Notes: generated by a model from the sequence alone, not told the origin. A stretch of 64,000 nt of DNA from Candidatus Woesearchaeota archaeon (GCA_016203225.1 JACQNC010000006.1:8552-72551), one strand, 5' to 3'; positions 9,705 through 53,540 are shown, numbered from the stretch's first letter. Translations and numbers: made by a program.

Positions 9705-9800
9705 CTGCCCAAGCACGATTGACGTAACATTACGGCTATCGATTCGATTGCGATAAAGCCACTACAAACCTGCTTGGGGAGTTCACGCCTGGGACGAAAG
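9705..9800 (+). repeat. structured intergenic repeat family, copy A (candidate sRNA or PATE/MITE-like element)
   Basis: Contains CACGATTGACGT (9714-9725), ATCGATTCGA (9738-9747), GCCACTACAAACC (9758-9770) and CACGCCTGGGACGA (9784-9797). A perfect 8-bp closing stem CCCAAGCA (9708-9715) / TGCTTGGG (9771-9778). Internal hairpin GGC-TATCG...CGATA-GCC. Confidence 0.7.
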
Positions 9801-9838
9801 CTCACGCAAGATGTGATTGTCATGCTAAAAACGAAGAA

Positions 9839-10000
9839 CTAACGCTTCCGCTTCGGCTTGAAAGCGTGGCTCGCGCAGCTCCTGCACGTCACCTTTCCGG
9901 CCAAGACCTTCATGTTCGAGGTGCGCATCACGGCCTTGCATCTGCGGCAGACGAACCTGTTGCGGAACATCCGCGCCTCTGCTTCTGGGAACCGTGCCAT
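9839..10000 (-). CDS. rpl40e: 50S ribosomal protein L40e
   Basis: 53-aa ORF not in the track: MARFPEAEARMFRNRFVCRRCKAVMRTSNMKVLAGKVTCRSCASHAFKPKRKR. It has the L40e zinc-ribbon pattern. Its ATG overlaps the aIF5A stop (TAATG). Confidence 0.8.
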   Translation of the reverse strand: MARFPEAEARMFRNRFVCRRCKAVMRTSNMKVLAGKVTCRSCASHAFKPKRKR

Positions 10001-10407
10001 TATTCTTCAGCCTTCGATTTCAACTGCTTCATGACCTTCTCGCCGAGGATGTTCCAGTAGATTATCTGGGCACCCTCGACGACGCTCGCCTTGAGCTCTT
10101 CAGGGATCTTGAGGTCGAACGTCTCATAGTTCTCGGCGTCCATCACGTTCGCCGCGTCCCCGGAGACGCTCAGCACCTGGGCGGTCTTCTTGTCTATCAG
10201 CGGGACTTCGACGTTGTCGTGCGCAGGAAGCACGATCTCGCGCTTCTTCTCGTCCATCAATCCGATGGCGGTGATGCGCGCCTTCGCGTGCCCGTGCTTG
10301 CCCGACTTGGAAGTCTCCATCGAGACGACCTTGCACGCCACACCATCGACGATGATGTAGCTGCCTTCCTTCATCGAGCCAGCATTCACAACCTTTGTGG
10401 TCATCAC
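10000..10407 (-). CDS. eif5a: translation initiation factor 5A (aIF5A, hypusine-containing)
   Basis: 135 aa with the hypusination loop SKSGKHGHAKARITAIGL. TATA (ATTTAAAAA on the - strand) is upstream. Confidence 0.92.
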   Translation of the reverse strand: MMTTKVVNAGSMKEGSYIIVDGVACKVVSMETSKSGKHGHAKARITAIGLMDEKKREIVLPAHDNVEVPLIDKKTAQVLSVSGDAANVMDAENYETFDLKIPEELKASVVEGAQIIYWNILGEKVMKQLKSKAEE

Positions 10408-10559
10408 AACACCTGTGCTCGTGGGACAAGGGGGTGGTTTTTAAATGTTATGGTGAAGGCCCTCTCGACGGCAGGAAGGCGCTGAATCGGAAGCTATTTA
10501 AACAACCCGCTTGGCTTGCAAGACCCCGTCAATCGAAAATCATTTTGTGAGTGAAGACC

Positions 10560-10919
10560 ATGGAAACGATAACCTCAGACACCGCTCTCTCGATAGGCAA
10601 CGCACGCGTAACGTACAGGAACCAACCGTTAGTGCTACCTCCGCAACAACTGCAAGTACTGCGCGAAGCATACATGGAAGGCACGAGCCTTGAACGCTAT
10701 ATCCAGTTCACGGAAGGAGAACGGAACTTCTATAGAGCGCGCAACAAAAACACCACCGACGCGGACAACAAACTCCGCCGTATGCAAGCGATAATACGGC
10801 TCGACCAATGCGGCGGCGAAGTCAGGTACAACGCAGCGACCGATCAAGCATATCTCAGAATAGCCATCGTAGAACGCGAGGCAACCGAACCCGGCCCAGT
10901 CGCTGCTCAAGCCGACTAG
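10560..10919 (+). CDS. hypothetical protein
   Basis: Protein-like composition, no family recognised. Its 3' end overlaps the convergent gene by about 65 nt, so one of the two ends may be mis-set. Confidence 0.35.
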   Translation: METITSDTALSIGNARVTYRNQPLVLPPQQLQVLREAYMEGTSLERYIQFTEGERNFYRARNKNTTDADNKLRRMQAIIRLDQCGGEVRYNAATDQAYLRIAIVEREATEPGPVAAQAD

Positions 10920-11508
10920 CATCAGGATACTTCGCCTCGTCCTCGCGGAACGCGCGCGAATGATGGCACTGCCGGCCTGGCTTCGACGCGAACTTGTGCT
11001 TTTTGTGCAGCATCTCGTGGTACATCACGTATGCCAAAAGCTCGGGGTCGCGGGCGAGATGCTTCGAGATCAATATCGTGTCGGTGCCGTATTCGTACAA
11101 CCCAACGGTGCGCGTGCCGTCCATCCAGTCGAAGTTCGGCGTCTCCAACATGTCGTCGAAGAACTCCCTGTTCAAGCGCTCGAACGTCTCCGCCAGGAAC
11201 GGGTCTGTCTTCGTCTTCGGCACGGCGAGATGCACGTTCTTCATGAACGAGAGATACAGCCGGATGTTGGTCGTATCCCTCTTCTCCTTGAACAACCGCA
11301 CCAACAGGTCCTGGACCATGCCGAGCTGGATATCCTTCGAGATCTGACGCCACTGCTTCGCCAACGACACTGTCAACGTCGAACCGCGCATCTTGATGTT
11401 GGCGTTGAACCCCTTGAACTTGCCGGAATACCTCACCACTGGCGTGAAAGAGAACGGTCTATCAGGATACAGTTCGTTGAACGCTTCGACCAGCAAATCA
11501 GGACGCAT
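10855..11508 (-). CDS. SprT/YgjP-like zinc metalloprotease domain protein
   Basis: YVMYHEMLHKKHKF contains HExxH in a context resembling the SprT/DUF45 families. TATA-like CCTTTTATG (- strand) lies about 27 nt upstream. Confidence 0.5.
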   Translation of the reverse strand: MRPDLLVEAFNELYPDRPFSFTPVVRYSGKFKGFNANIKMRGSTLTVSLAKQWRQISKDIQLGMVQDLLVRLFKEKRDTTNIRLYLSFMKNVHLAVPKTKTDPFLAETFERLNREFFDDMLETPNFDWMDGTRTVGLYEYGTDTILISKHLARDPELLAYVMYHEMLHKKHKFASKPGRQCHHSRAFREDEAKYPDASRLEQRLGRVRLPRVLRWLF

Positions 11509-11661
11509 GAGACATGATTGACATCCCAGGCATAAAAGGATTACTGCGGGACTCAGTGGAAAGTCCCGCGCTCACATGCTTGCCCCGAGTCATGACCTAT
11601 CGCAAGCACCAACCGCCGGTTCAAGAACGGCGCCTCGTTCGCGCTGACAAAAGGCGACTTT

Positions 11662-12072
11662 CTACTGAGCCTGCGGTTTGCCGAGATACTTCTCGACAAG
11701 CGCGAGCAGGTTGCTCGGCGTGAACGGCTTCTGGATGATCGCGCAGGCGCCCGCCCTGATGGCGTCTACCCGCGTATAATCCCGGTCCCACGTGCCTGAC
11801 GCCGCGATGCAGGGCAGATCAGGATAATGCTCCTTTGCCTGGACGATCAGCGCGAGACCGTGCATGTGAGGCATGACACAGTCGGTGATCAGCAAGTCAG
11901 GCCTCGCGTCGGCCAACATCTCCAGGGCAGTCTTGCCGTCAGGCGCCGTCTGCACATCATAGTTCGCTTTGAGTATCGCTATGTACAATCCGCGAATGGC
12001 AGATTCATCCTCCGCGATTAGGATGCGCTTCTTGACAACAGGGATCGGTGTGGGATTGATATCGTCAGCCAT
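11662..12072 (-). CDS. stand-alone response regulator receiver domain (CheY-like)
   Basis: KRILIAEDE...DLLITDCVMPHMHGL...KPF pattern (phospho-acceptor Asp, conserved Lys). 136 aa with no output domain. Confidence 0.8.
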   Translation of the reverse strand: MADDINPTPIPVVKKRILIAEDESAIRGLYIAILKANYDVQTAPDGKTALEMLADARPDLLITDCVMPHMHGLALIVQAKEHYPDLPCIAASGTWDRDYTRVDAIRAGACAIIQKPFTPSNLLALVEKYLGKPQAQ

Positions 12073-12136
12073 GTTTTATACTGCTTTCTGAGCGTTTAAA
12101 AAGCTTTCCATTTTAACCATCAACAAGTGATGACAA

Positions 12137-13240
12137 TCACTCGATGTGCGCAGCATACCTGAGCATGCCAGCGAACTTACCGATGTCGCGCAGCTGCACG
12201 CCCTCGCGCGTCTCGGTCGAGATGATCTTGACCGTCGTCGAATAGTTCTTGGCTATCGATTCGAACTCGTCGATCTTCTCGTCAGACAAAGCCTCGGACA
12301 GCATCAACGTGTCGACGGCGCCCATCTCGAGCGCCTTGCGCGTCTGGTTCTCGCCGTAGACGACAAGCTCAGCCTTCGTGGACAACAGCTCGAAGAACCT
12401 GCTCATTACCTTCTTCTCATCGGCTATCTCCTCCTGAGCGAGCACGTCCTGCGAGCGGTCGACGAGCTCGCCGATACCGAACTCATCCGTGTAAGTCAGA
12501 TCCTTGACAGCGATTATCTTCTTCTTGACCTCGTTCGTGATGTAAGGACCATCCACCATCTCGTACTTCGTCGGACCGGGACCGCCGACAAGGATGCCTT
12601 TCAATCCTTCCATCATGAGGAACTGGTCCTTCATGTAGTCAGCCACCTTCTTGTAGTGCTGCTTCGCCGCCAATTCGCGGTTCTGCTGGAAGCGGTGCGC
12701 AGATTGCCCGCCGGCCTTCATCTTGCCTGGCACCTCCGAGTGCGTCTTGACCAGGATCTGGATGGACTTGCCTCGCAAAATCCCGATCGTGGCGTCGCGC
12801 GCGTCCATCACGACCAGCCCGTACGATTCCTTGGACTCGAGCATGTCGCGCAGGAGGTCGAGCTTGAAGTCCTTGTCGCAACGATAGAGCCGTTGGTTGA
12901 TCGGCACTGGCGGCTCGATGCTCCACACGCGCACATCGATACCGCCTTCCCGTTCGGAGACGTTGCCCGAGAACGCGAGCAACCCGTTCGGCGGCGTGCG
13001 GTTGACGACCTTCAAGTGCTGCACCATGCGCTCGAGCGCGTCCTGGACGTTGCGACGGGTCGTCGCAGACTTGATGTTCGACGCCGTGCCCTGCTCGTCC
13101 TGCAGTTGCTGGATGACCTTGACCAAGTCATAGCCTGCAGGGACCCAGACCGAGACGAGTTCCGTATGCCGGCCACGCTTGCCTTCGAGCTCCTTCAGGA
13201 ACTTCTTGATCTCGAAACGCTGGTGCGCGGAAAGAGACAT
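12137..13240 (-). CDS. prf1: peptide chain release factor aRF1
   Basis: NIKS motif (TASNIKSATTRRN) and GGQ motif (KAGGQSAHRF). The TATA centre at 13267 is 27 nt from the ATG. Confidence 0.92.
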   Translation of the reverse strand: MSLSAHQRFEIKKFLKELEGKRGRHTELVSVWVPAGYDLVKVIQQLQDEQGTASNIKSATTRRNVQDALERMVQHLKVVNRTPPNGLLAFSGNVSEREGGIDVRVWSIEPPVPINQRLYRCDKDFKLDLLRDMLESKESYGLVVMDARDATIGILRGKSIQILVKTHSEVPGKMKAGGQSAHRFQQNRELAAKQHYKKVADYMKDQFLMMEGLKGILVGGPGPTKYEMVDGPYITNEVKKKIIAVKDLTYTDEFGIGELVDRSQDVLAQEEIADEKKVMSRFFELLSTKAELVVYGENQTRKALEMGAVDTLMLSEALSDEKIDEFESIAKNYSTTVKIISTETREGVQLRDIGKFAGMLRYAAHIE

Positions 13241-13262
13241 GACACATTTTCCTCGGAAATGC

Positions 13263-13271
13263 TATTTAAAT
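13263..13271. promoter_or_regulatory. TATA box (TATTTAAAT) for aRF1, possibly shared with the divergent cupin gene
   Basis: Centre is 27 nt from the aRF1 ATG (13240). Confidence 0.5.
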
Positions 13272-13341
13272 GTTTGTCCGGACGTCTCGTACCTATCCCA
13301 CATTCACAATCCATAACTTACCGATAGCGCGCGACGACTGC

Positions 13342-13695
13342 ATGCAGCCAGCCATGATCCGTGTGCAGAAAGGATGGGGGCACGAGCTCTGGATCGTCAA
13401 CAAACCAGAATACTGCGGAAAACTCCTGTTCTTCGAGAAAGGCAAGCAGTTGAGCTGGCACTACCACCGCATCAAGGACGAGACTTTCTACGTACAGTCC
13501 GGAAAGGTCCTGCTGAAATATGCAGACCACGACGATATCTACAAGGCAGCTGAGCTTGTTTTGTCGCCCGGTCAACAGTTCCACGTCCGTCCAGGCCTAC
13601 GGCACCGCCTGATTGGGCTCGAGGAAAGCGAGGTGTTCGAGTTCTCGACCCAGCATTTTGACGAGGACTCAATCAGGATCCAGAAAGGCGATTGA
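13342..13695 (+). CDS. cupin-domain protein (sugar isomerase-like small cupin)
   Basis: KGWGHELWIVN...YCGKLL...SWHYH...ETFYVQSG...FEFSTQHF is a single cupin barrel. Start moved to the ATG at 13342 because the track start at 13270 lies inside the TATA box. Confidence 0.6.
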   Translation: MQPAMIRVQKGWGHELWIVNKPEYCGKLLFFEKGKQLSWHYHRIKDETFYVQSGKVLLKYADHDDIYKAAELVLSPGQQFHVRPGLRHRLIGLEESEVFEFSTQHFDEDSIRIQKGD

Positions 13696-13731
13696 GAAAC
13701 GTTTATATTGTTCTCCGCACCAGCCACACCT

Positions 13732-14592
13732 ATGAAAGCGGTGATGCCAACCCTCGTCGCGCTGCTGCTCGTGGCTTCTGTCGGCGCGGTCAGCATCAAG
13801 GAATCGGTCGAGTCGTTCTTCATCGACGAAACCCCTGATGTCGTCATCGGCGACCAGAAACACCTGGACGACCAGTACGCAGCGAACGGTTTCATGAACG
13901 AGTTCGGCCAGAAGGACTACGTCCTGGCGTCGAAAGCCGCGGTGAAAGCGCTCGTCGTCATCGGCGGCCCGTGCGCGAACCCTGTCTGGGCGGACTATTC
14001 CTCCGAGACGTGCGGCACCTGGGACCAGCCAGAAGGCAAGGCCGTGATCGTCTCTGCGCAGAAGGACGGCAAGAACGTGCTACTGATCGGCGGCACGTCG
14101 GGCAAGGACACGCGCGCGGCAGCGAAACACGCGCTCACCAAGTTCAGCGAGGCGATATTCAACAACGCCCGAGTCGTCCTCGACACGGAAGGCCTGCCAT
14201 TGGCGAGCGACCAACTAATAGTGTACACCACGACCAGCACGCTCGAGCCCGGCCAAAGCTCAGCAAAGGGCGCGGCGGTCATCCACATCCCAAAGGATCC
14301 CAGCGGAGGCACACAGGACCTCGCGGACGGGCTGCGCAAGTACCTCCTCGCATCGTATCCTTACGCGACAGTCGTCATCGAGGAATCAAACCAGCTCACG
14401 CTCACGGACATCGACGGCAAGGTCTACATCAAGATGAACGAGGCTCCCTTGATCTCGGTCGACGAGGACGCGCCTGCGGACCACGTCGTCATCGCATCGG
14501 CGGCAGCGTTCTGGCTCGCCGGCCAAGGCCTCGACATCCAAGCAGACACCACGCACAACCAGCTCATTCTCGATGACATGAAGTTCGGATAA
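13732..14592 (+). CDS. secreted or extracellular hypothetical protein
   Basis: N-terminal signal/anchor MKAVMPTLVALLLVASVGAVS. TATA GTTTATATT lies 27 nt upstream of the ATG at 13732. No family recognised. Confidence 0.5.
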   Translation: MKAVMPTLVALLLVASVGAVSIKESVESFFIDETPDVVIGDQKHLDDQYAANGFMNEFGQKDYVLASKAAVKALVVIGGPCANPVWADYSSETCGTWDQPEGKAVIVSAQKDGKNVLLIGGTSGKDTRAAAKHALTKFSEAIFNNARVVLDTEGLPLASDQLIVYTTTSTLEPGQSSAKGAAVIHIPKDPSGGTQDLADGLRKYLLASYPYATVVIEESNQLTLTDIDGKVYIKMNEAPLISVDEDAPADHVVIASAAAFWLAGQGLDIQADTTHNQLILDDMKFG

Positions 14593-14690
14593 ACCCCGGC
14601 GTGATGAATTTTGCCACGATTGTAGTGGTTCTATCGATTCTGGGAACGCAAGAACGTCAAACCTGCTTGGACAGAAAAGCAGGGGAAGAG
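14593..14690 (+). repeat. structured intergenic repeat family, copy B (divergent)
   Basis: CCACGATTGTAGTGG hairpin (14614-14628), ATCGATTC (14633-14640), CAAACCTGCTTGG (14658-14670). The 3' arm is instead locked in a local 7-bp hairpin CCTGCTT/AAGCAGG. The copy begins right after the stop codon at 14592. Confidence 0.5.
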
Positions 14691-14715
14691 CTGCGTAGGT
14701 GTCCATACCATAACC

Positions 14716-14723
14716 TTTTTAAA
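14716..14723 (+). promoter_or_regulatory. TATA box (TTTTTAAA) for tRNA-Pro(TGG)
   Basis: Centre is about 31 nt upstream of the tRNA 5' end. Confidence 0.5.
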
Positions 14724-14750
14724 CCCCCTTCTGGTTCTTCGACGTCACAA

Positions 14751-14824
14751 GGGGCTGTCTGCTAACTTGGTTAGGCTTCCTGGCTTGGGACCAGGTGATC
14801 CCGGTTCGAATCCGGGCAGCCCCA
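14751..14824 (+). tRNA. tRNA-Pro (anticodon TGG)
   Basis: Acceptor GGGGCTG/CAGCCCC plus discriminator A. Anticodon arm CCTGG-CTTGGGA-CCAGG. T arm CCCGG-TTCGAAT-CCGGG. No encoded CCA. Confidence 0.9.
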
Positions 14825-14865
14825 CATGCTGAAGGATACAAACAACAAGCTCATCGGTGATTCTA

Positions 14866-15195
14866 ATGCCAGAACAGAAAATCGGACTCAAAAGCGCCAA
14901 ACGCTTCGGACCGCGCTACGGAGCAACAAACAAGCTCAAGCTCGCCCTGATCGAGGAACAGCAACGCAAGCTCCAACCATGCCCGACGTGCGGCAAGACC
15001 AAAGCCAAGTGGCAGAGCGTCGGCGTGTTCGAATGCAGGAAGTGCGGCGCTAAGTTCACCGGCAAGGCCTACGCGGTCAAGCAGGCGATCATGTTCACCA
15101 AGGAGAAAACCAAGGAATTGACGCCGTCAGAGATCGCGGCGTTACGCAAGTCCGAGGACGACGCGCGCAAGGCAGAATCCGAGGAGGCTATCTGA
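14866..15195 (+). CDS. rpl37ae: 50S ribosomal protein L37Ae (eL43) with a C-terminal extension
   Basis: KSAKRFGPRYGA...CPTCGK...WECRKCGAKFTGKAY zinc ribbon. GGTGAT Shine-Dalgarno lies 4 nt upstream of the ATG at 14866. About 40 extra charged residues follow the conserved core. Confidence 0.88.
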   Translation: MPEQKIGLKSAKRFGPRYGATNKLKLALIEEQQRKLQPCPTCGKTKAKWQSVGVFECRKCGAKFTGKAYAVKQAIMFTKEKTKELTPSEIAALRKSEDDARKAESEEAI

Positions 15196-15332
15196 TGGTC
15201 AAATACGCATGCTTCATCTGCGGACGCAAGATATCCGAGGACCTCCTGGGCAAGCGCATCCGGTGCCCCTACTGCAGCAGCAAGATGCTGTACAAGCCGC
15301 GCACGACCACGACGAAAGTCAAGGCGGTCTGA
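15195..15332 (+). CDS. rpoP: DNA-directed RNA polymerase subunit P (Rpo12)
   Basis: 45-aa ORF not in the track: MVKYACFICGRKISEDLLGKRIRCPYCSSKMLYKPRTTTTKVKAV. It has the RpoP zinc-ribbon pattern. The ATG overlaps the L37Ae TGA. Confidence 0.8.
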   Translation: MVKYACFICGRKISEDLLGKRIRCPYCSSKMLYKPRTTTTKVKAV

Positions 15333-15338
15333 TTCTTC

Positions 15339-15671
15339 ATGACGGAGATGAGCACGGAAGCGAAGGAGCAGCTCCAACGCCTCCAGATGCTCGACCAGAA
15401 CGTCCAGCAATTGGCGATGCAGAAGCAGCAGTTCCAGACACAGCTCTTCGAGCTCGAGAACGCGCTGAAGGAAATCGAATCATCGCCGCAGGCGTACAGG
15501 ATCATCGGCAACATCATGGTCGCGACCGACAAGGCCACGCTCAAGAATGACCTCGAGGGCAAGAGAGAGCTCGTCGACCTCCGCGTCAAGGCGTTCGAGA
15601 AACAGGAGAAGCAGCTGCGCGACAAGGTCAAGCAACTGCAGGAAGACGTCCTGAAGAACATGAAGAAGTGA
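15339..15671 (+). CDS. pfdB: prefoldin beta subunit
   Basis: 110 aa with two coiled coils flanking a beta hairpin (AYRIIGNIMV). Sits in the L37Ae-RpoP-prefoldin context that I recall as a common archaeal arrangement. Confidence 0.85.
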   Translation: MTEMSTEAKEQLQRLQMLDQNVQQLAMQKQQFQTQLFELENALKEIESSPQAYRIIGNIMVATDKATLKNDLEGKRELVDLRVKAFEKQEKQLRDKVKQLQEDVLKNMKK

Positions 15672-15913: not shown

Positions 15914-15971
15914 TCAAAAATCAATTCTGTGCCCTCGAAATCTTCATAAATCACTGTACGAGTGTCAGGTT

Positions 15972-17015: not shown

Positions 17016-17037
17016 GCCCAGATATTCCAACGCAGGG

Positions 17038-17046
17038 TTTAAAAAG
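17038..17046. promoter_or_regulatory. single shared TATA box (TTTAAAAAG) for divergent MscS and DRG genes
   Basis: Centre 17042 is 27 nt from the ATG at 17015 (-) and 27 nt from the ATG at 17069 (+). Confidence 0.55.
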
Positions 17047-17068
17047 CTATCCGGGCAGGACCGAGAGC

Positions 17069-35306: not shown

Positions 35307-36386
35307 TCAGAACCTATCCAGCGTAGTCGGCTTCTCCTTCGTAGCGATGTCCACTATGGTGGTCGTGCCTTCTGCGCCGCCGATTATCTTATTGGCGGTC
35401 ACGAACCCCCCTCTTTCCAGCCTATCGATCTTGCGCTGGAAAGTCTTGTACGTGCCGAAACCGCCCACTTCCTTGTACAGCCGGAACAGGTCCCCTATCT
35501 TGGAGCCAGAATTCTTCTTGACCACATCGAGGATCTGCTTCGTGTCATCTCCGAGATCGTCCGGCTTGCGGATCACGAACTCCTTCGCCTTCGTGATGGC
35601 GACGTTCGCGTGCTCGAACAGGATGCGCTTGCTGTTCGCGTACTCGGACGCCAAGGCAGCCTCACGGAACAGGAACATTCCGACCCGTATGTCCTTGGCC
35701 TCGAACGCGTAGGATGTCATGGCGTTTAGCGCGTCATCGGTGAGCGCGCCCGGGATCAAAGCCAACTCGGCACGGTGCTTCAGGATGCCGCTCACTTCCT
35801 CTTTCGAATAACTCCTGAACTCGATGATCTCCGGAGTCATACGGGAACGGATACGCTCATCGATGTCCTCGAGCCATTCCTTGTAGTTCGTGACCAAAAA
35901 CACGGCTTTCTTGTACAACTCCTCCAGGATGGAGTACAGGAAGTCATGGTCCTCGACCTTGTCGACCTCATCGAAGACGAAAACGCCCGCCTTCTTGTTC
36001 ACTATGTTCTTGATGACCTCGAACAATTCCTCGGTGCGCTTGTTCTGCGTGAACTTGTAGCCCAGCTGCTGGCAGATCTCCTCGAAGATCTTGAACGTGG
36101 TGTTCTTCTGCCAGCAATTGATGTATACCATCTCGACGTCGTCCGTCGTGTCCTCGAGCTCGCGCAACACCCACTTGATGGCTGCGGTCTTGCCGACGCC
36201 CGGCGGCCCGTGAACGAGCGCGTTCCTACCAGGCCGGCCCTCGAGCAAAGGCCGGATGCACGCGGCGGCGCGCTTCTGCTGCAACTCTCTATAAGGAAGA
36301 AGCTTAGGGACGAACTCGAGGTCGAGCGCGTCCTCGTTCCTGAAGAGCGTCTCACCACCCTTTTGCGAAAACAACCCCATCACCAA
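35307..36386 (-). CDS. cdc6: Orc1/Cdc6 replication initiator
   Basis: Walker A LVHGPPGVGKTAAIKWV, Walker B VFVFDEVD, and a C-terminal winged helix. Confidence 0.9.
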   Translation of the reverse strand: MVMGLFSQKGGETLFRNEDALDLEFVPKLLPYRELQQKRAAACIRPLLEGRPGRNALVHGPPGVGKTAAIKWVLRELEDTTDDVEMVYINCWQKNTTFKIFEEICQQLGYKFTQNKRTEELFEVIKNIVNKKAGVFVFDEVDKVEDHDFLYSILEELYKKAVFLVTNYKEWLEDIDERIRSRMTPEIIEFRSYSKEEVSGILKHRAELALIPGALTDDALNAMTSYAFEAKDIRVGMFLFREAALASEYANSKRILFEHANVAITKAKEFVIRKPDDLGDDTKQILDVVKKNSGSKIGDLFRLYKEVGGFGTYKTFQRKIDRLERGGFVTANKIIGGAEGTTTIVDIATKEKPTTLDRF

Positions 36387-38693: not shown

Positions 38694-38730
38694 TGTCTCA
38701 TCCTCCTTCGTGCATGAAATCCATACTCCA

Positions 38731-38870
38731 CCGCCCGGACACAATCAGAACGGAACGTTCTGATGTGCACGAGAACGCTTGCGTTCTCGTAGCAACCTCG
38801 CACCCTTGGTGCTCGGAGCCCGGACGTTGCATCGACTACAAACCCGAGTTCTCACCCGGATTAACGAATC
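38731..38870 (+). repeat. structured intergenic repeat family, copy E (divergent, hairpin-rich)
   Basis: CCCGGACACAATCAG (38734-38748) parallels CCCGGCACGATTGACG. ACTACAAACC (38835-38844) and GAGTTCTCACCCGG (38846-38859) parallel copy A. Hairpins CAGAACG-gaa-CGTTCTG (38746-38762) and ACGAGAACG-cttg-CGTTCTCGT (38769-38790) resemble the insertion in copy D. Confidence 0.5.
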
Positions 38871-38872
38871 AA

Positions 38873-39059: not shown

Positions 39060-39134
39060 AGCGGGGTGGGGAAGCTTGGAGTTCCCGGCGGGCTCATAAC
39101 CCGCAGCTCGCACGTTCAAATCGTGCCCCCGCTA
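39060..39134 (+). tRNA. initiator tRNA-Met (anticodon CAT)
   Basis: A1:U72 acceptor end (AGCGGGG/CCCCGCT). Three consecutive G-C pairs closing the anticodon loop (GCGGG-CTCATAA-CCCGC). T arm GCACG-TTCAAAT-CGTGC. Followed by TTTTTT. Confidence 0.88.
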
Positions 39135-45159: not shown

Positions 45160-45726
45160 ATGGACGTCATCACGAAAGACGACTTCGTGCAGAACCTGAG
45201 CAGATACTACAAGCAAATAAAGGAAGGCAAACTCTTCATACACCCCACTGACACGATCTACGGAATCGGGTGCGACGCGACGAACTCCAAGGCCGTGCTG
45301 CACGCCCGCGACGCAAAGAACCGCCACACGAAGGCGTTCAGCGTCATCGCGCCCGGCAAGGATTGGATCCGCGAAAACTGCACGGTCACGAAAGAAGGCG
45401 AGAAGTGGCTCGAGAAGCTCCCGGGACCGTACACGCTCATCTTCCACCTCAAGAAGAAATACGCCATCGCGCCGGAAGTGAACCCTGCACAGGACACGCT
45501 CGCGGTGAGGATCCCGTCGCACTGGTTCAGCAAAGCCGCGCAGGAGCTCAACATCCCGATCATCACGACGGCAGCCAACAAGGTCGGACAGCTCTTCATG
45601 ACGACGCTCGACGACCTCGACCCCGACATCGCCAAACACGTCGATTTCACGATCTACGAAGGCGAGAAGAAGGCTAAGCACAGCACCGTGATCGACGTCA
45701 CGCAAGGCGGGAAGATAGTTTACTGA
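45160..45726 (+). CDS. L-threonylcarbamoyladenylate synthase (YrdC/Sua5 family, short form)
   Basis: LFIHPTDTIYGIGCDATNSKAV...KNRHTKAFSVI..., 188 aa. Confidence 0.8.
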   Translation: MDVITKDDFVQNLSRYYKQIKEGKLFIHPTDTIYGIGCDATNSKAVLHARDAKNRHTKAFSVIAPGKDWIRENCTVTKEGEKWLEKLPGPYTLIFHLKKKYAIAPEVNPAQDTLAVRIPSHWFSKAAQELNIPIITTAANKVGQLFMTTLDDLDPDIAKHVDFTIYEGEKKAKHSTVIDVTQGGKIVY

Positions 45727-45838
45727 CGCTCCCCGCTCGTTCTCCCCCGGCACGATTGACGTAGCTTTATCGGTATTTATCAGATAGCCAAACACCACCA
45801 CCAACCTGCTTGGGGCAGCAATGCCTGGGACGGGGGCG
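45727..45838 (+). repeat. structured intergenic repeat family, copy C
   Basis: CACGATTGACGT (45751-45762), CACCACCACCAACC then TGCTTGGGG (45807-45815), GCCTGGGACG (45823-45832). The inner stem CCCCGGCA/TGCTTGGGG is pairable with one G-U and one bulge. Outer pairing CGCTCCCCG (45727-45735) / CGGGGGCG (45831-45838). The copy starts right after the stop codon at 45726. Confidence 0.6.
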
Positions 45839-45907
45839 ACACCGACGTTTTGCCAAACATTTATAAAGCTCCCGTCGGTAAACGGGTTAGGGTGTTCTGA
45901 GAATAAT

Positions 45908-47465: not shown

Positions 47466-47467
47466 AT

Positions 47468-47944
47468 TCAGTACTGCTGCAGCAGATCCTCGATGCTCGC
47501 GCCTATACAGCACGGCAATCCCAACGCGACAACCATATTGCGCAGATGCTCAGGACCCACAAGAAGGAAATTTATCCCGTAGAGATAGATGAGGAACCAA
47601 GACACCACGAAACCGATCACCAAATAGGAAGCGAGGCGTTTCACCCAGAACTGGCCGAACCTGCGTTGCGACTTGTTGCGCACACGCGCATAGCCTATGT
47701 AATAGATCTCACTCGACAGTATGACTATTGTGGTGGCGATGATGAACCAGATGTGCGTGTCCGTGAGCTTCTGGGTCACATCGATGAACAGCCCTTTAGG
47801 GACGAAAGTGAGACCGAAGATGAGCGCCCCGAACGCGGCGCCCACCACGCGCTTCATGTTGAAATGGTGCGGTACGCGCTCCACCATCTCCTCACGGATG
47901 AATCTCACGTCTTCTGCGACCTGTTTCAACGCGGGTTTGGCCAT
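47468..47944 (-). CDS. integral membrane protein (DUF2391-like, tentative)
   Basis: 158 aa, four hydrophobic helices. Its stop is 3 nt from the glk start. Confidence 0.45.
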   Translation of the reverse strand: MAKPALKQVAEDVRFIREEMVERVPHHFNMKRVVGAAFGALIFGLTFVPKGLFIDVTQKLTDTHIWFIIATTIVILSSEIYYIGYARVRNKSQRRFGQFWVKRLASYLVIGFVVSWFLIYLYGINFLLVGPEHLRNMVVALGLPCCIGASIEDLLQQY

Positions 47945-47945
47945 G

Positions 47946-48272
47946 CTAGTAGACTTCTACCGGGAATTCTTTATCGTCTTCTTTCTTCGGATTGCCCCAC
48001 AGGTCCACCTTCTGCGGTTCTTGGGGCGCATTGAGTTCCTTTAGGACTTCGACAGATGGAGCGGGCGCGGGAGATTCAGGCGGGCTTGTCGGAGCCGGCG
48101 ACGAGTCGAAGAAGTTCGACAAGGCACTGCCGCCTGATGGAGCAGGACTGTCGAAGATGTTGGATGGTTGCGCGACCTCCTGGACGGACTCGCCGACTAT
48201 GCCCTTGAGCAATGCGATTATCCTGCGGATGTGGTCGTGAGAATCCGACGCCGTGTCTATCGTGATCTTCAT
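47946..48272 (-). CDS. hypothetical protein with a Pro/Ser-rich low-complexity middle
   Basis: MKITIDTASDSHDHIRRIIALLKGIV... then SPAPSGG...SPAPTSPPESPAPAPS. No family recognised. Confidence 0.35.
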   Translation of the reverse strand: MKITIDTASDSHDHIRRIIALLKGIVGESVQEVAQPSNIFDSPAPSGGSALSNFFDSSPAPTSPPESPAPAPSVEVLKELNAPQEPQKVDLWGNPKKEDDKEFPVEVY

Positions 48273-48376
48273 GTCGCCTCTTTCGTGGAAAACACATATG
48301 TCCTGGTTTAAAAATGTTTGCCGCACTGGACATCCGTGCGTGAAATATAAAAACAGATCAATCCGTTTCCATCATC

Positions 48377-49061
48377 GTGATTTCTTCCACACCCGCATTT
48401 GCTGAATTGTGTGGCATCCATGCAGGTGACGGTTGGATATCTTCGTACAATTATGAGATTGGTTACGGAACGGCAACGTACGAAGCTCCGTATTTCCTGT
48501 ATGTCATGAATCTGTATCAAGAATGCTTACCATTGAAAGAAAATATCAGGATCTTATGGCGAAGAGCGATTGAATTGAGAATACAATCCAAGGAATGCCA
48601 GCAGATTCTTCAGGAAGCGGGGTTTCCGCGGGGCAGCAAGCTCGACCATCTACGGATTCCTGCATTTGTTTGGTCGAAACCTGAATATTTACGCAGATTT
48701 CTGCGAGGCGTGATGGATACTGATGGCCACGTGCATTGGAGGAAAAGTGTCAACCGCAAGTACTTGGTTCTGACTTGGACGACTGCATCAGACGCATTTG
48801 CTAGCGACATCGTTCGTGCGCTGCACGTGCTGGATCTGTGCGCCCATGAGCAAACGTTCATTCCGCGATACAAAGACCGCATAAGAAGGCGTCGGGTACA
48901 CTGCATCTCCATCAGTAGAAAGAGCGATGTCGTATTCTACTTGAGACATATAGGATTCAAAAATCCGCGAAGATGGGAACAAGTTTTACGAAACAAAGAG
49001 GAATTGCTCAGATACAACACCGCAAACCTTTTTAAGCAAACCCCGGAATTCTCGACGTTAC

Positions 49062-49084
<23 letters not shown>
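48377..49084 (+). CDS. free-standing double-motif LAGLIDADG homing-endonuclease-like protein
   Basis: Two LAGLIDADG-type motifs, LCGIHAGDGW and FLRGVMDTDGHV. GTG start with TATA AAATATAAAAAC about 29 nt upstream. AT-richer than the flanks. The last 23 nt run into tRNA-Val. Confidence 0.65.
49029..49036 (+). promoter_or_regulatory. TATA box (TTTTTAAG) for tRNA-Val, inside the LAGLIDADG ORF
   Basis: Centre is about 30 nt upstream of the tRNA 5' end. Confidence 0.5.
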
Positions 49085-49133
<49 letters not shown>

Positions 49134-49136
49134 TCG

Positions 49137-49739
49137 ATGTTCAAGAACCGCGCCGATGCAGGCAGGAAACTCGCGAAACAGCTGAAGGCTGGAAAGAGGA
49201 CCGTCGTTCTTGGCCTGCCTCGCGGCGGCGTCGTAACCGCAGCAGAGGTCGCGAAGGCGCTAAAGGTGCCGCTTGACATCATCGTGACCAAGAAACTCGG
49301 CTACCCGCGCGATCCCGAATATGGCATCGGCGCAGTAGGGCTGAAAACCGACGTCATCGACCGTGCGGGCGTCGATCCTGCGTACATCAAAAGAGAAATC
49401 GCACAACTCCGCAAGCAGGTAAAGGAACGTTACCAGAACCTGCGCGGCAAAAGGAAGATGCCTGCGCTAGCCGGAAAGATGGTCATCATAGTCGATGACG
49501 GCATGGCGACCGGCGCGAGCATGGAAGCCGCGGTCAAGGAAGTAGCGACACAAAAACCTGCAAAGGTGATCGTGGCGGTGCCTGTAGCGCATCCCGACGC
49601 GGTACGCCGCATCGAACGCATCGCGGAAGTCATCTGCCTCGAACAGCCATGGAGATTCCTCGCGGTCGGCGAGTTCTACGAGGACTTCCGTGAAGTCACT
49701 GAAGAGGATGTGAAGAAGTTCTTGAAGAAACCTTTATAA
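49137..49739 (+). CDS. phosphoribosyltransferase-domain protein
   Basis: PRPP-binding loop MVIIVDDGMATGASM. The ATG starts 3 nt after the tRNA-Val discriminator. Confidence 0.75.
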   Translation: MFKNRADAGRKLAKQLKAGKRTVVLGLPRGGVVTAAEVAKALKVPLDIIVTKKLGYPRDPEYGIGAVGLKTDVIDRAGVDPAYIKREIAQLRKQVKERYQNLRGKRKMPALAGKMVIIVDDGMATGASMEAAVKEVATQKPAKVIVAVPVAHPDAVRRIERIAEVICLEQPWRFLAVGEFYEDFREVTEEDVKKFLKKPL

Positions 49740-49740
49740 G
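49733..49740 (+). promoter_or_regulatory. TATA box (TTTATAAG) upstream of the tRNA-like minihelix and tRNA-Pro(CGG)
   Basis: It overlaps the PRTase stop codon. Its centre is about 35 nt upstream of 49772. No other TATA-like element lies before tRNA-Pro(CGG). Confidence 0.45.
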
Positions 49741-49771
49741 CAGCCAAACGACCATTTCGATCGCCATATTC

Positions 49772-49820
49772 GGGGCTGTGGTCCACGGCAGAGATGCGCT
49801 CTGCCTAGACCAGCAACCCC
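49772..49820 (+). ncRNA. tRNA-like minihelix / structured leader preceding tRNA-Pro(CGG)
   Basis: GGGGCTGTGGTC (49772-49783) is identical to nt 1-12 of the downstream tRNA. It can pair with GACCAGCAACCCC (49808-49820) around a perfect hairpin GGCAGAG-atgcg-CTCTGCC (49787-49805). Confidence 0.4.
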
Positions 49821-49845
49821 TCGTATCGACTGAAAACCAAAACTC

Positions 49846-49919
49846 GGGGCTGTGGTCTAACTTGGTTATGACTGAAGGTTCGGGACCTTCAAATCCCGGT
49901 TCAAATCCGGGCAGCCTCA
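49846..49919 (+). tRNA. tRNA-Pro (anticodon CGG)
   Basis: Acceptor GGGGCTG/CAGCCTC (one G-U) plus discriminator A. Anticodon arm GAAGG-TTCGGGA-CCTTC. T arm CCCGG-TTCAAAT-CCGGG. Confidence 0.88.
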
Positions 49920-49934
49920 TGCACCGCCGGGGTT

Positions 49935-49963
49935 TCAGGGGCGCGGCGCTAGAGCGCCCCTGA
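49935..49963 (+). other. GC-rich 10-bp hairpin between tRNA-Pro(CGG) and the hydroxylase gene
   Basis: TCAGGGGCGC-ggcgctaga-GCGCCCCTGA. Confidence 0.5.
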
Positions 49964-49981
49964 GCACCTGCGTTTCCGAAC

Positions 49982-50611
49982 ATGATCAATCCGCGCTATC
50001 TCCAAACGACAGTCCTCGCACGCCTGCGGAAACGGTACGCTGCGAACAAACCCTTTCCCCATGCGCAGCTCAAGGACTTCTTCGATGTGAAACAACTCCG
50101 CAAAGTCAAACACGCTCTGCTGAACGAGCGATTCGTCGAAGCGGAAGCGGACCTTTTCTCATTCCAGCAGTGCGATGATCTGAAGCACAGCAAGAACCGG
50201 ACACTGCGAGAATTCCGTTCATTCCTGCGTTCGCCGCGATTCCTATCATTGCTCTCCTACATCACCGGCGAGAACCTCTCGGCCACGATCGACATCTCAG
50301 GCTTCATCTACGACGACACCGACCACCTGCTTCCGCATGACGACAAGCTCGAAGGCAGGAAGCTCGCATTCGTGCTCAATCTTTCAACCATGACCGCAAA
50401 AGATGGCGGGCAACTTGACTTGTTCAAAGGAAACAATGTCGCGAAATCCTATCTGCCCGCGTTCAACTCTCTCGTCGTCTTCACGGTCAAGCCCGGAACG
50501 ACGATGCACCAGGTGCGCGAGGTGCTGACAGACGAGAAACGCATCACGCTTGCGGGGTGGATACACGGGAACGAACGTTCCCGGGTGCATGAGAACCGGA
50601 GGTCTGAGTAG
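49982..50611 (+). CDS. 2OG-Fe(II) oxygenase, OGFOD1/Tpa1/Ofd1-type prolyl hydroxylase catalytic domain
   Basis: DHLLPHDDKLEGRKLAFVLNL (HxD), GGQLDLF, NSLVVFTVKPGTTMHQVREVLTDEKRITLAGWIHG. As I recall the family signature, this closely parallels the OGFOD1 N-terminal domain. Confidence 0.7.
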   Translation: MINPRYLQTTVLARLRKRYAANKPFPHAQLKDFFDVKQLRKVKHALLNERFVEAEADLFSFQQCDDLKHSKNRTLREFRSFLRSPRFLSLLSYITGENLSATIDISGFIYDDTDHLLPHDDKLEGRKLAFVLNLSTMTAKDGGQLDLFKGNNVAKSYLPAFNSLVVFTVKPGTTMHQVREVLTDEKRITLAGWIHGNERSRVHENRRSE

Positions 50612-50614
50612 CAC

Positions 50615-51178
50615 ATGGTTAATCTCTCGGACTGGATAAACCAGACATACCTCGACAAAGGCGTCGTCGAGGAGATGCGCGCGGTCTTCGCGAAGAACAG
50701 GCAATTATTGCTTCCCGACTTCCTGTGCAAGGACTCCTACAAGCATGCGATGCGACTCGCCCGATCCGCGGCGTTCAAACGCGCGTATGTCCCTGACCAG
50801 ATGTCGTGCGCGTTCGCGATGCGGCAAGACGCGTTCCTGCGCTTCCTCGCTTCAGAGCGATTCGCGTCATATGTTCAACTAATCACAGGCACGAAATCTG
50901 GAAAACGAGCGTTCTACACCGAATTGCGCGCAAGGGACTACACAGTCATCAAGGACCTCCCCCAGACATGGAAACTCCTCACGCACCTCTTCCTGTCCCC
51001 CTGGAACGCCCACTGGGGCGGACGCATGATCTTCCGCGACGCCGAAGGCAACCACACGCACAGTCCGCCGGCGCAAAACACGTTGCTGTTGACCGGGAAC
51101 AGAAAGGGGTTGCACGGATACGTCGAATACGTCAACCATCACGCTGGAAAGAGAACGACCATCACCGCGAACGTTTAG
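50615..51178 (+). CDS. OGFOD1/Tpa1 C-terminal (non-catalytic DSBH) domain-like protein
   Basis: Begins LSDWINQTYLDKGVVEEMRAVF...LLLPDFL, resembling the WINPxYL start of the Ofd1 C-terminal domain. No HxD triad is seen. It starts 3 nt after the upstream stop. Confidence 0.55.
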   Translation: MVNLSDWINQTYLDKGVVEEMRAVFAKNRQLLLPDFLCKDSYKHAMRLARSAAFKRAYVPDQMSCAFAMRQDAFLRFLASERFASYVQLITGTKSGKRAFYTELRARDYTVIKDLPQTWKLLTHLFLSPWNAHWGGRMIFRDAEGNHTHSPPAQNTLLLTGNRKGLHGYVEYVNHHAGKRTTITANV

Positions 51179-51969
51179 CCGAACAGGCGCTGATAGTTCA
51201 GCCAGACATTGTTCGCGACTTCCTCGACCGCGAATTTCTTGACGCCTGCGATGAACTTGACGCTCTCGAGCACGTTCTTGGGCTCGTTGCGCTCGCCAGC
51301 GACCGGCCCGAGCCACGGCGAATCCGTCTCGGTGAGCAGTTGATTGATGTTGAAGACATCGCAGATCATCCTATAATGCTCCAGACGCACGCACACCGGA
51401 GGTACGCTCGCGTAAAACCCGAGATCCGCTGCTTTGCGAGCGACGCTTTTCCTGGCGCCGAAGCTGTGCAAGTCCACTTTTTTCACATTGCTGGACTCCA
51501 GCATCTCGACAGTCTCCTTCTCCGCGTTGCGGGTGTGCACGATCAAAGGCTTCTTTATCTTCTCCGCGAGATCGATGACTTTCTGGAAGTTCTGCCGCAT
51601 CACGAGTTGCAGATGCGGCTCCTTGACGAACTTGAAGTCCAGACCCACTTCACCTATGCCTATTATCCTGTCCCTCTGCGACTTGATGAATTCGAGCTCC
51701 TTGTCGAGATCGATCTTGTGCACCGGACGCGTCAATCCCGAATCGCCTTCGAGATCGAGCCCTAGCGCGTCGATCGGGTACGCTCCGAGCGCGGGTTTGA
51801 GGATTGGATCCATCTCGCAGAGCTTCAGCACCTCGCGGTTGGTCGGCTCGTTCACGCCGTTCACGATGATGGATCTCACGCCCGCGGCTTTCGCCCTCTC
51901 GACCACCTCTTTCAAGTCAGTCTTGAACAGCTCGTGCTGCAGGTGCGCGTGGACATCGACGAGGAACAT
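51175..51969 (-). CDS. tatD: TatD-family metal-dependent hydrolase
   Basis: MFLVDVHAHL..., GEVGLDF, VHTRNA, typical C-terminal TDSPWL. Confidence 0.85.
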   Translation of the reverse strand: MFLVDVHAHLQHELFKTDLKEVVERAKAAGVRSIIVNGVNEPTNREVLKLCEMDPILKPALGAYPIDALGLDLEGDSGLTRPVHKIDLDKELEFIKSQRDRIIGIGEVGLDFKFVKEPHLQLVMRQNFQKVIDLAEKIKKPLIVHTRNAEKETVEMLESSNVKKVDLHSFGARKSVARKAADLGFYASVPPVCVRLEHYRMICDVFNINQLLTETDSPWLGPVAGERNEPKNVLESVKFIAGVKKFAVEEVANNVWLNYQRLFG

Positions 51970-51992
51970 GCCTTGCAGGTGACCTCAATAGC

Positions 51993-52000
51993 TTTAAAAG
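51993..52000. promoter_or_regulatory. shared near-palindromic TATA (GCTTTAAAAGC) for tatD and tRNA-Arg
   Basis: Centre is about 27 nt from the tatD ATG (51969, -) and about 31 nt from the tRNA-Arg 5' end (52027, +). Confidence 0.5.
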
Positions 52001-52026
52001 CGTATGCCCGTTCCCCCGACGATAGT

Positions 52027-52100
52027 GCCCTCGTAGTATAACTTGGATAGTACGCGGCCCTCCGAAGGCTGCAGTCGGGGTTCAAATCCCCGCGGGGGCG
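52027..52100 (+). tRNA. tRNA-Arg (anticodon CCG)
   Basis: Acceptor GCCCTCG/CGGGGGC (one G-U) plus discriminator G. Anticodon arm CGGCC-CTCCGAA-GGCTG. T arm CGGGG-TTCAAAT-CCCCG. Confidence 0.85.
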
Positions 52101-52101
52101 T

Positions 52102-53343
52102 TCAATGCACTTCTTCCGTGCGTTCCTCTTTCACGAACAGGAACACGATGAAGGACAGCACGAAGAACACTAGCAAGGACAGCACCGCGAGGCGCTGGTT
52201 GCCGGTCGCGGCGGATACGCCGCCGAACACCAGCGGACCGAGCGTCGCGGACAGCTTCGACGCGAGCGCATTGAAACCGAACAGTTCGGTCGATTTCCCC
52301 AAGGGCACGATCAGGCTCAGCAACGAGCGTCCGACGGCTTGGCTGGACCCGACGACGGCGCCGGTGAGCACGGCAAGCGCGTAGAACATCGCGGGCGTCT
52401 CTACGACAGACATCCACACGGTCACCACTACCCATCCCGCGACCGCACAGAGCAGGACACGCTTGCTCCCGAAACGGTCCGCCACCTTTCCCGCGAGCGG
52501 CGTCACGATGAACCCGACCGCTTGGACGATCAGGAACAGCACGAACACCGCAGACAGCGGCAGACCGAGCGTCGTCGTCGCGAAGATTCCGGTGAAGCTG
52601 AAGATCGTCACGAGACCGTCGTTCAACAGATAGAACGCCAAGAAAAAGAGGAACACGTTCTTGTATTCATGGACATGGGAAAGCGTGTGCATAACCCGCC
52701 GAAATCCGTGCCGAACGAACGCGCCGGCCTGCGCGACGCCTCGATCGCGGACCCAGAGAAACGCGGGCAGCGCGAACACGAGGAAGAACAGCGCGATCAG
52801 TGGAAACGCGAACCTGACTGTAGGCGCATCGATTCCCGCTCTGTACAACGGCAGGAGGAGTATCGCAGCGAGCGCGCCGCCGAGATAACCGAGCCCCCAC
52901 GCGAACCCTGACACGGTGCCAGCGTGCTGCGGTTTCGCGATCACGGTGAGGAAACTGTCGTACAGCACGATGGCGTTCTCGAACGCGTAATTCGTGATGA
53001 TGAACAGGATGCTCGCGAGCACAACGGTCCCGGGGCCGGTGAAGTACAGCGACGCTGTCCCGAAAACGGCGACAAGCACGAAGAAGACGAACACCGGCTT
53101 GCGTCGCGCGGCAGCATCCGCGCTCGCACCGATGAACGGCGCGCTCAACCCACCCAACAGGATACTCACCGACACGATGATGCCCCACCACAGGTCCGCG
53201 TTCGGTCCGCCGCCCACGATGACGTCGCGGAAATAGACCGAGAACAGAAGCGAGATGATGAGCAAAGAATATGACGAGTTCGCGAAGTCGAAGAACGCCC
53301 AACTCACGACCTCTTTCTTGTTCGGGATGCCCTTTAGGAACAC
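52102..53343 (-). CDS. MFS transporter (UMF1/Atg22-like family)
   Basis: SWAFFDFANSSY near the N-terminus and about 12 TM helices. GTG start 26 nt from the TATA centre. Confidence 0.75.
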   Translation of the reverse strand: MFLKGIPNKKEVVSWAFFDFANSSYSLLIISLLFSVYFRDVIVGGGPNADLWWGIIVSVSILLGGLSAPFIGASADAAARRKPVFVFFVLVAVFGTASLYFTGPGTVVLASILFIITNYAFENAIVLYDSFLTVIAKPQHAGTVSGFAWGLGYLGGALAAILLLPLYRAGIDAPTVRFAFPLIALFFLVFALPAFLWVRDRGVAQAGAFVRHGFRRVMHTLSHVHEYKNVFLFFLAFYLLNDGLVTIFSFTGIFATTTLGLPLSAVFVLFLIVQAVGFIVTPLAGKVADRFGSKRVLLCAVAGWVVVTVWMSVVETPAMFYALAVLTGAVVGSSQAVGRSLLSLIVPLGKSTELFGFNALASKLSATLGPLVFGGVSAATGNQRLAVLSLLVFFVLSFIVFLFVKEERTEEVH

Positions 53344-53365
53344 AGCTTATGGGAAGACGTGCGCG

Positions 53366-53372
53366 TTATAAA
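53366..53372. promoter_or_regulatory. TATA (TTATAAA) for the MFS gene, also correctly placed for + strand transcription of repeat copy D
   Basis: Centre 53369 is 26 nt from the GTG at 53343 (-) and about 33 nt from CCACGATTG at 53402 (+). Confidence 0.45.
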
Positions 53373-53383
53373 CCTTGCTTTGC

Positions 53384-53540
53384 GCCCCGGCTCTGCTGTT
53401 GCCACGATTGACGTGGTTTTACGGGCAGAACGTAGCGTTCTGCTGTACAGCCGAGACCTTCGGGCTCGGCATGTATCGCAATCGATTCGAAAGCAGAAAT
53501 GCCACCACAAACTTGCTGGGAAACTCACGCCTGAGACGAC
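53384..53540 (+). repeat. structured intergenic repeat family, copy D (expanded by about 60 nt)
   Basis: CCACG-attga-CGTGG hairpin (53402-53416), TTACGG, ATCGATTCGA (53481-53490), GCCACCACAAAC (53501-53512), CACGCCTGAGACGA (53526-53539). Stem CCCGGC (53386-53391) / GCTGGG (53515-53520). Two extra hairpins relative to copy A: GCAGAAC-gtagc-GTTCTGC and GCCGAG...ttcg...CTCGGC. Confidence 0.7.

Follow-up and report, generated by a model that had tools for sequence, protein, structure and literature searches.

Palindromic repeats in intergenic spacers of a Candidatus Woesearchaeota archaeon: a probable family of non-autonomous mobile elements

The DNA analysed here, referred to as the window, is a stretch of 64,000 nt with a G+C content of 57% from a Candidatus Woesearchaeota archaeon (GCA_016203225.1, JACQNC010000006.1:8552-72551). 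The nearest named relatives of its eRF1, SMC and deoxyhypusine synthase are metagenome-assembled genomes of Candidatus Woesearchaeota (DPANN), and its deoxyhypusine synthase is an exact match to MBI4144918.1. Five segments of the window, designated copies A to E, are the subject of this report. Copy A lies between a gene for an M50 peptidase (-) and an L40e-like open reading frame (ORF) of 53 aa (-); copy B between an S-layer-like gene (+) and tRNA-Pro (+); copy C between Sua5 (+) and a metallophosphoesterase gene (+); copy D between the gene of an MFS transporter (-) and dys, which encodes deoxyhypusine synthase (-); and copy E between a DUF1428 gene (-) and tRNA-Ser (-). These gene calls bear out a preliminary description of the same DNA, made by a model from the sequence alone, which had placed A, D and E among minus-strand genes and B and C among plus-strand genes. 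The coordinates likewise agree with its statement that each copy touches the 3' end of a gene. Between the end of copy A and the stop codon of the L40e-like ORF there are approximately 35 nt. Copy B begins 2 nt past the S-layer-like stop and ends approximately 25 nt before the TATA box of tRNA-Pro. Copy C begins 6 nt past the Sua5 stop at 45726, and the metallophosphoesterase gene on its other side has a TATA box at 45859. Copy D spans the interval from the MFS TATA box (TTATAAA, 53366-53372) to the dys stop codon (53541), and copy E ends at the 3' end of tRNA-Ser (38872), its other neighbour being the start of the DUF1428 gene. The copies are non-coding, 100-170 bp long and contained wholly within spacers. 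All five occupy spacers of same-direction genes, at the 3' end of the upstream gene and 10-30 nt from the downstream TATA box. Their orientation relative to local transcription is mixed, three one way and two the other.

Two sequence blocks named in the preliminary description co-occur at 9714/9784, 45751/45820 and 53403/53526, with a degenerate fourth pair at 14615/14652 and a fifth candidate at 38725-38871. Family models, consisting of a sequence-only covariance model (CM) and an nhmmer profile, placed four clear copies at 9694-9804 (A), 14594-14694 (B), 45732-45832 (C) and 53372-53544 (D), with CM E-values in the window of 1e-18 to 1e-25. In leave-one-out searches with nhmmer, the tested copy and its ortholog were both removed from training. 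Each clear copy was nonetheless found again at 19-57 bits (six copies, two genomes), and therefore the family is not a chance resemblance. The proposal of a five-copy family stands for copies A to D; copy E was missed by both the family HMM and the CM. Copy E (38725-38871, +) is a marginal, degenerate member without the CACGATTGACGT block that is described below. It has a double-hairpin module of the type found in copy D (CAGAACGGAACGTTCTG at 38746-38762 and a second hairpin) and a block CGACTACAAACC...TTCTCACCCGG. The features common to D and E are the hairpin module CAGAACGnnnCGTTCTG...TGTnCA, followed by a second hairpin, and the ACTACAAACC block; the module is confined to these two copies. 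A local alignment of E with D scores 31, compared to a maximum of 26 in 500 shuffles, and the reverse strand scores 24.

The family was also sought outside the window. Two Logan contigs identical to the window break off inside copies, in B at 14639 and in D at approximately 53467, a behaviour typical of repeats in short-read assemblies. A pattern scan of 185,579 species-representative genomes gave 28 matches, all bacterial and at about the chance expectation, which means that the set lacks the genome of the window, and a scan of JGI metagenomes gave 16 matches, none of which was confirmed by the CM. Three scans of viral contigs returned chance matches or none, with nhmmer negative on those loci, and no further copies were found in approximately 100 kb of more distant relatives. 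Rfam 15, searched over the window and copy A at the gathering score and at E<=10, returned tRNAs and chance matches and no family over the copies.

[quoted passage not shown] When flanks are included, the extended hairpin comprises an outer arm, in which CCTTGCATTgcG pairs with CGCAATGCCgGGG, an inner arm, in which CCCAAGCAgGTTTGACGT pairs with ACTACAAACCTGCTTGGG, and the same apex. One inverted repeat (I2) joins the 5' half of copy A to the 3' half of copy D. In the six-copy alignment 75.8% of cells are paired in register, as opposed to 35-45% when the register is slid. The second block of the preliminary description, CACGCCTGGGACG, pairs with the left outer arm; it is no right-end hairpin of its own. 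Because each copy is palindromic, both strands match the family model, and the orientation of a copy is defined by small asymmetries alone.

The four clear copies differ in their details. Copy A (9694-9804, +; nhmmer 89.8 bits on the plus strand and 51.2 on the minus strand) has the outer arm GTCCTTGCATTTCTG, the inner arm CCCAAGCACGATTGACGT, the apex, a 3' arm GCCACTACAAACCTGCTTGGGG and a tail AGTTCACGCCTGGGACG. It is flanked by the M50 promoter TATTTAAG at 9672, which serves the minus-strand gene, and by the stop of the L40e-like ORF (9839). Copy B (14594-14694, +; 57.6 and 9.5 bits) is the most degenerate of the four and carries a 14-nt insert. Copy C (45732-45852, +; 80.2 and 26.4 bits) ends in a T4 run. 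Copy D (53373-53540, +; 70.6 and 15.7 bits) has approximately 49 nt of extra sequence in its 5' arm near the apex, which forms two hairpins, one with CAGAACGTAGCGTTCTG (53426-53442) and one with GCCGAGACCTTCGGGCTCGGC (approximately 53450-53470), and, behind the first arm, a 12-nt insert. Copies A, C and D have the 12-mer CACGATTGACGT without a single difference despite an overall identity of 64-73%.

Syntenic loci of relatives, gathered through homologs of eRF1, SMC and dys, reveal that the copies are gained and lost between close relatives. The closest relative is sample SRR32573209 (loci L037, L054 and L056), whose proteins are 93-98% identical to those of the window. The next outgroup is represented by L035 and L125 (eRF1 89%), and L033 is more distant (eRF1 84%). 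Empty sites, which the preliminary description had suggested looking for in related strains, exist. In SRR32573209 sites A and B are occupied, and sites C (L054) and D (L056) are empty. In the outgroup sites A and B (L035) and site D (L125) are empty, and site C falls outside the loci. In L033 there is a weak match at site A and none at site B, and sites C and D differ in gene order. The A ortholog in L037 (12805-12913) is 74% identical to the window copy, and the same spacer in L035 is an empty 52 nt. Site B of L037 (8937-9039) holds a well-preserved copy that is 50% identical to copy B of the window. The L033 match at site A (E 7e-4 when the search was restricted to 3.8 kb) is specific to that site and has the orientation of the window copy. 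At site C the spacer is 73 nt in L054 and 182 nt in the window, the missing segment corresponding to approximately 45750-45852 (CGGCACGATTGACG...GACGTTTT). The spacer between dys and the MFS gene is 27 nt in L056, where dys is 95% identical, 31 nt in the outgroup L125 and 197 nt in the window. Since site D is empty in both L056 and the outgroup, copy D is, by parsimony, a gain in the window lineage after its split from the closest sampled relative. The change at site C is unpolarised, there being no outgroup with the same gene order.

Alignments of filled and empty sites at C (L054) and D (L056, L125) each contain one clean gap with no duplicated flank. To the left of the element these two mapped sites are unlike, with TTATAAA before D and TTCTCCCC before C, and no target sequence is common to the two junctions. 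A candidate target duplication at C, CGTTCTCCC/CGTTTTGCC, was rejected, as it would need a further indel of 5 nt and nothing comparable is seen at D. Likewise, the imperfect direct repeat ACGCTCTCAC/ACGCTCAC that flanks the full copy at site B of L037 was rejected as a target duplication, being inconsistent between sites.

Some of these spacers have further features. The C-terminus of the dys product differs right at the D junction (53541-53552): it reads ...AFQGQ* in the window, ...AFQK* in L056 and ...SLK* in L125. Judging from these termini, the insertion of D may have remodelled the end of dys, its last codons and its stop. In L037, a fragment CATTTCTGCCCACG upstream of the B-site copy (9040-9065, -) resembles the left end of an older copy and is followed by the full copy. 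The site may represent a nested or replacement insertion, which would explain why the B-site copies are only 50% identical. In L033 the B-site spacer (8220-8430) contains two unrelated G+C-rich hairpins, CACCGAGGCCGCTCGGTG and TTTCGAGTGCCTGCTCGAAA, in place of copy B; the same spacer is filled by different hairpin-forming inserts in different lineages.

Orthologous copies diverge at about the neutral rate. The identity between orthologs is 74% for A and 50% for B, that between paralogs is 52-73%, and the neutral yardstick, 1102 fourfold-degenerate sites compared between the window and SRR32573209, gives 64.7%. The pattern overall is what a decaying, once near-perfect palindrome would show, and not what a structured RNA under selection would show. 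[quoted passage not shown] The empty sites for C and D in a relative of about 95-97% protein identity, that for D also in the outgroup, support a mobile element over a chance resemblance or a conserved small RNA. The copies would be moved in trans by an enzyme whose gene lies elsewhere in the genome, a transposase or recombinase that recognises the conserved inner arms. The copies would survive where a compact genome tolerates them, in a short spacer between the 3' end of one gene and the promoter of the next, and such a limit on survival would explain why each copy abuts a 3' end. Copies D and E presumably acquired the extra two-hairpin module near the apex. After insertion, copies decay at about the neutral rate. 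Some strand preference at insertion is possible.

Several observations weigh against a mobile repeat. No autonomous partner or transposase was found in the searched 64 kb of this genome or in approximately 150 kb of its relatives. The ends of the element are known approximately and not to single-base precision, and at the extremes of D an inverted repeat is not clearly recognisable. The empty C site of L054 retains CGCTCGTTCTGCCC, a sequence similar to the left outer arm elsewhere in the family; C may thus be absent there through deletion, and not because the site was never occupied; long palindromes are prone to deletion. The site-A remnant in the relative with 84% eRF1 identity is older than neutral decay easily allows. 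That A, C and D share CACGATTGACGT unchanged hints that the block may be under constraint or subject to gene conversion; a putative protein-binding inner arm inherited from active source copies would fit as well. No near-identical pair of copies was seen, the maximum identity being 74%, and therefore the case for recent activity rests on the single polarised gain of D.

The preliminary description had named independently transcribed small RNA (sRNA) genes as its alternative. The copies would then be such genes, or cis-acting hairpins of 3' untranslated regions, that fold over their length and act as RNA. This is unlikely, as indicated by the folding and the pattern of change along the hairpin. 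Copy A can form a long hairpin of -34.9 kcal/mol (z -2.4), copy E folds at -49.8 kcal/mol (z -3.4) and the best preserved of the copies, at L037 8930-9045, has -46 kcal/mol (z -4.0). However, the fold of copy C is no better than that of shuffles (z +0.7), the site-A match of L033 has a z of +0.1, and the z-scores as a whole scatter from -4.0 to +0.7. Five pairs, and only five, have changed on both sides, and both hairpin covariation (0.143 compared to 0.110 in column shuffles, reached by 17 of 500) and the fraction of paired cells (75.8% compared to 73.9%, 44 of 500) barely exceed the shuffles in an alignment of six sequences. The basal helix has G-U pairs on the plus strand in three window copies, which are C-A mismatches on the opposite strand, as an RNA read from the plus strand would have; the basal helix of two L037 copies has A-C mismatches on that same strand. 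There is therefore no consistent RNA-strand signal. The occupation of site A in relatives down to 84% eRF1 identity would be consistent with a conserved RNA, but C and D are missing from a relative with approximately 95% protein identity, the divergence of orthologs is close to neutral, the copies lie in mixed orientation with respect to their flanking genes, and no Rfam family matches.

The remaining support for sRNA genes was a set of promoter-like elements. On the plus strand, A and D are each preceded at 20-35 nt by a TATA-like box, and C ends in a T4 run. The same boxes, however, precede the minus-strand M50 and MFS genes, whose start codons are approximately 25-35 nt away. A box homologous to the one at site D is present in relatives that lack element D (TATTAA in L056, TTTAAAA in L125), the box at site A is also present in L035, L033 and L031, and B and C have no TATA-like box at a consistent distance. 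The boxes at A and D, as read from their position and retention, are evidently promoters of the neighbouring genes, and not, as had been suggested, promoters of the copies themselves. With covariation near that of shuffles, C and D absent from a close relative and no match in Rfam, the sRNA alternative of the preliminary description is not supported. Inspection by eye also led to the rejection of a C/D-box or H/ACA identity: proper C/D boxes are lacking, and the ACA, instead of following the basal stem, is part of the 3' arm. Within the insert specific to copy B is a C box-like GTGATGA (14601-14607), with no D box or guide arrangement seen and no Rfam C/D match.

The position of the copies suggests another possibility, that they are hairpins selected by the host, as bidirectional terminators or insulators or as sites for a chromosome-organising protein, which spread by duplication and were kept for that role. 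The location of all five exactly between an upstream 3' end and the next promoter, in pairs of same-direction genes, would suit such a role, a palindrome works either way round, and D separates dys and the MFS gene, which are only 27-31 nt apart in relatives. Yet tandem spacers for five of five copies are not unusual in an operon-rich genome, and relatives manage the same gene pairs without the element. Moreover, a T5 run, the probable terminator of the L40e-like gene, is located between its stop and copy A, which leaves A outside the transcript. Archaeal termination uses oligo-T tracts, not hairpins. Together with the neutral decay of the copies, these points make a host role very unlikely.

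The preliminary description had favoured transposition of the IS200/IS605 type, with the copies as palindrome-associated transposable elements (PATEs), non-autonomous derivatives of that insertion sequence (IS) family. The HUH enzyme TnpA would move single strands into the lagging-strand template, so that orientation would be uniform within a replichore. The part of this interpretation that is supported is the non-autonomous mobile element, as indicated by the empty C and D sites; the single-strand mechanism is not supported, in view of the inverted repeats and the unlike left flanks of the two mapped sites. PATEs have no inverted terminal repeats, IS605-like palindromes near their termini, a target of 4-6 nt and no target duplication (PMC3119063). 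Consistent with these properties, target duplications are absent from the junctions of C and D, a small hairpin, ACG-ATTGA-CGT (with 5 bp in D), can form from the left block, and a TTCTGCCC-like sequence precedes A and C and is still present at the empty C site of L054. The element, however, is a single inverted repeat, whereas PATEs and IS605-type elements lack inverted terminal repeats (PMC3119063). Two similar near-terminal palindromes would be expected, and the right block CACGCCTGGGACG forms no hairpin comparable to the left one; the present elements are single palindromes of 110-170 nt. Left flanks are unlike at D and C, and no 4-6 nt left-end target is shared by these two mapped junctions. 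The motif CCTTGCWTT...GCCC is absent from the empty D sites, so that it is there part of the element and not of the target.

Neither a Pfam scan of 30 window ORFs nor the gene tables covering approximately 150 kb of relatives gave any transposase domain, Y1_Tnp and OrfB_IS605 included, in agreement with the earlier statement that the window lacks tnpA and tnpB, and no Rfam family matches the copies at E<=10. A likeness to PATEs, to IS200/IS605 ends and to repetitive extragenic palindromes (REPs) with their RAYT transposases lies in the lack of target duplication, the hairpin-forming DNA, the location after genes and a possible strand bias. REPs are 20-40 nt long, whereas the present elements are 110-170 nt, and the sequence covered contains no TnpA, TnpB or RAYT gene. 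An origin of the copies as PATEs is accordingly judged improbable.

The argument for a single-strand mechanism was the uniform plus orientation of the copies over 44 kb. All four clear copies do score higher on the plus strand with both nhmmer and the CM. In the leave-one-out searches the plus and minus scores were 57.5 and 45.2 bits for A, 19.3 and 10.8 for B, and 51.4 and 24.6 for C, margins of 12, 9 and 27 bits, and the margin for D was approximately 16 bits. The claim of a uniform orientation is thus upheld for A to D as a better score on one strand, but the margins are small, and the A ortholog in L037 scores higher when flipped (47 compared to 37 bits). The probability that one strand would be shared by chance is 1/16 (two-sided) for five of five copies and 1/8 for four of four. 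There are only four or five copies (p at least 1/16), their orientation is weakly defined, and the shared plus orientation, which is not statistically significant, is most simply chance. GC skew is negative over the whole window with no switch of sign. It is plausible that the window lies in one replichore, as strand-biased transposition would have it. The uniform orientation is compatible with a strand-biased mechanism, yet the skew is no test of it. An orc1/cdc6-type gene is present at 35307-36386 (-; NCBIfam E 1e-57, below equivalog cut-offs); beside it there is no AT-rich or repeat-bearing spacer that would mark a replication origin, and no GC-skew switch in the 64 kb. If the plus bias were real, the copies could be palindromic repeats specific to DPANN archaea that insert as folded single strands, in one orientation to replication, through a transposase, of the HUH type or another, so far not linked to such elements; we regard this as a long shot.

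Repeats that are short, non-coding and multi-copy, that lie between genes near gene ends, form a long hairpin and vary in presence among strains are well known, and include MITEs and, in bacteria, the palindromes spanning the whole repeat of Correia elements (CREE), ERIC/IRU, RUP and BOX. Modular variants with extra hairpins, as in copies D and E, are known in BOX and BIME. The mobile repeat proposed here has several properties of MITEs: it is short, non-coding and multi-copy, has inverted terminal repeats, and is present or absent at orthologous sites among close relatives. Classical MITEs also have target-site duplications and ends that match a resident IS, whereas neither was found for the present family in the sequence covered, target-site duplication being absent at C and D. 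MITEs have been defined by inverted repeats related to a known transposon, often with target duplications, and SMRs by a length of approximately 80-110 bp and prominent inverted repeats unrelated to transposons, with no target duplication and an unknown mode of movement (Dyall-Smith et al. 2011, PMC3119063). The family fits the description of SMRs, which are a descriptive class and not a homology group. It resembles by description SMR-A and SMR-B of Haloquadratum walsbyi (HqIRS42, 43, 55 and others), which are likewise archaeal, non-coding and approximately 80-110 bp long with prominent inverted repeats, lack target duplications, have ends unlike those of known transposons and occur as strain-specific insertions. 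There are also differences. SMR-A insert preferentially into PATE or IS605 palindromes, whereas the present copies are in ordinary spacers after genes; SMR copies are usually >95% identical, compared to 50-74% here; and the host of SMRs is a haloarchaeon, that of the present family a DPANN archaeon. Integron attC sites, diversity-generating retroelements and tRNA-linked integrase attachment sites were considered and rejected, given the housekeeping context, the mixed gene orientation and the lack of an integrase or reverse transcriptase nearby.

If the copies are mobile repeats, the family documents non-autonomous mobile repeats in Woesearchaeota, within a group, DPANN, whose mobile DNA is poorly described. 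Copy D is a dated gain that has pushed apart genes otherwise separated by 27-31 nt, and the family accounts for the breaks of this organism's short-read contigs at these positions. Annotation should mark the segments as repeats instead of sRNA genes and should assign the adjacent TATA boxes to the neighbouring genes. A genome-wide strand bias, if true, would provide a handle on the direction of replication and on an unknown transposition system of DPANN archaea. The practical value is modest; a mobile palindromic repeat of this sort is ordinary selfish DNA.

Finally, two other features of the window were observed. ARAGORN calls a tRNA-Met (CAT) at 39060-39134 (+), where the Rfam tRNA model is silent even at E<=10; the feature may be an atypical tRNA or a false call. 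At 48377-49084 (+), a free-standing ORF with a LAGLIDADG_3 domain (E 3e-8) overlaps the start of tRNA-Val (49062-49133). The gene table of L055, a syntenic relative, lists nothing that corresponds to it, and it may be another mobile or homing-endonuclease gene.

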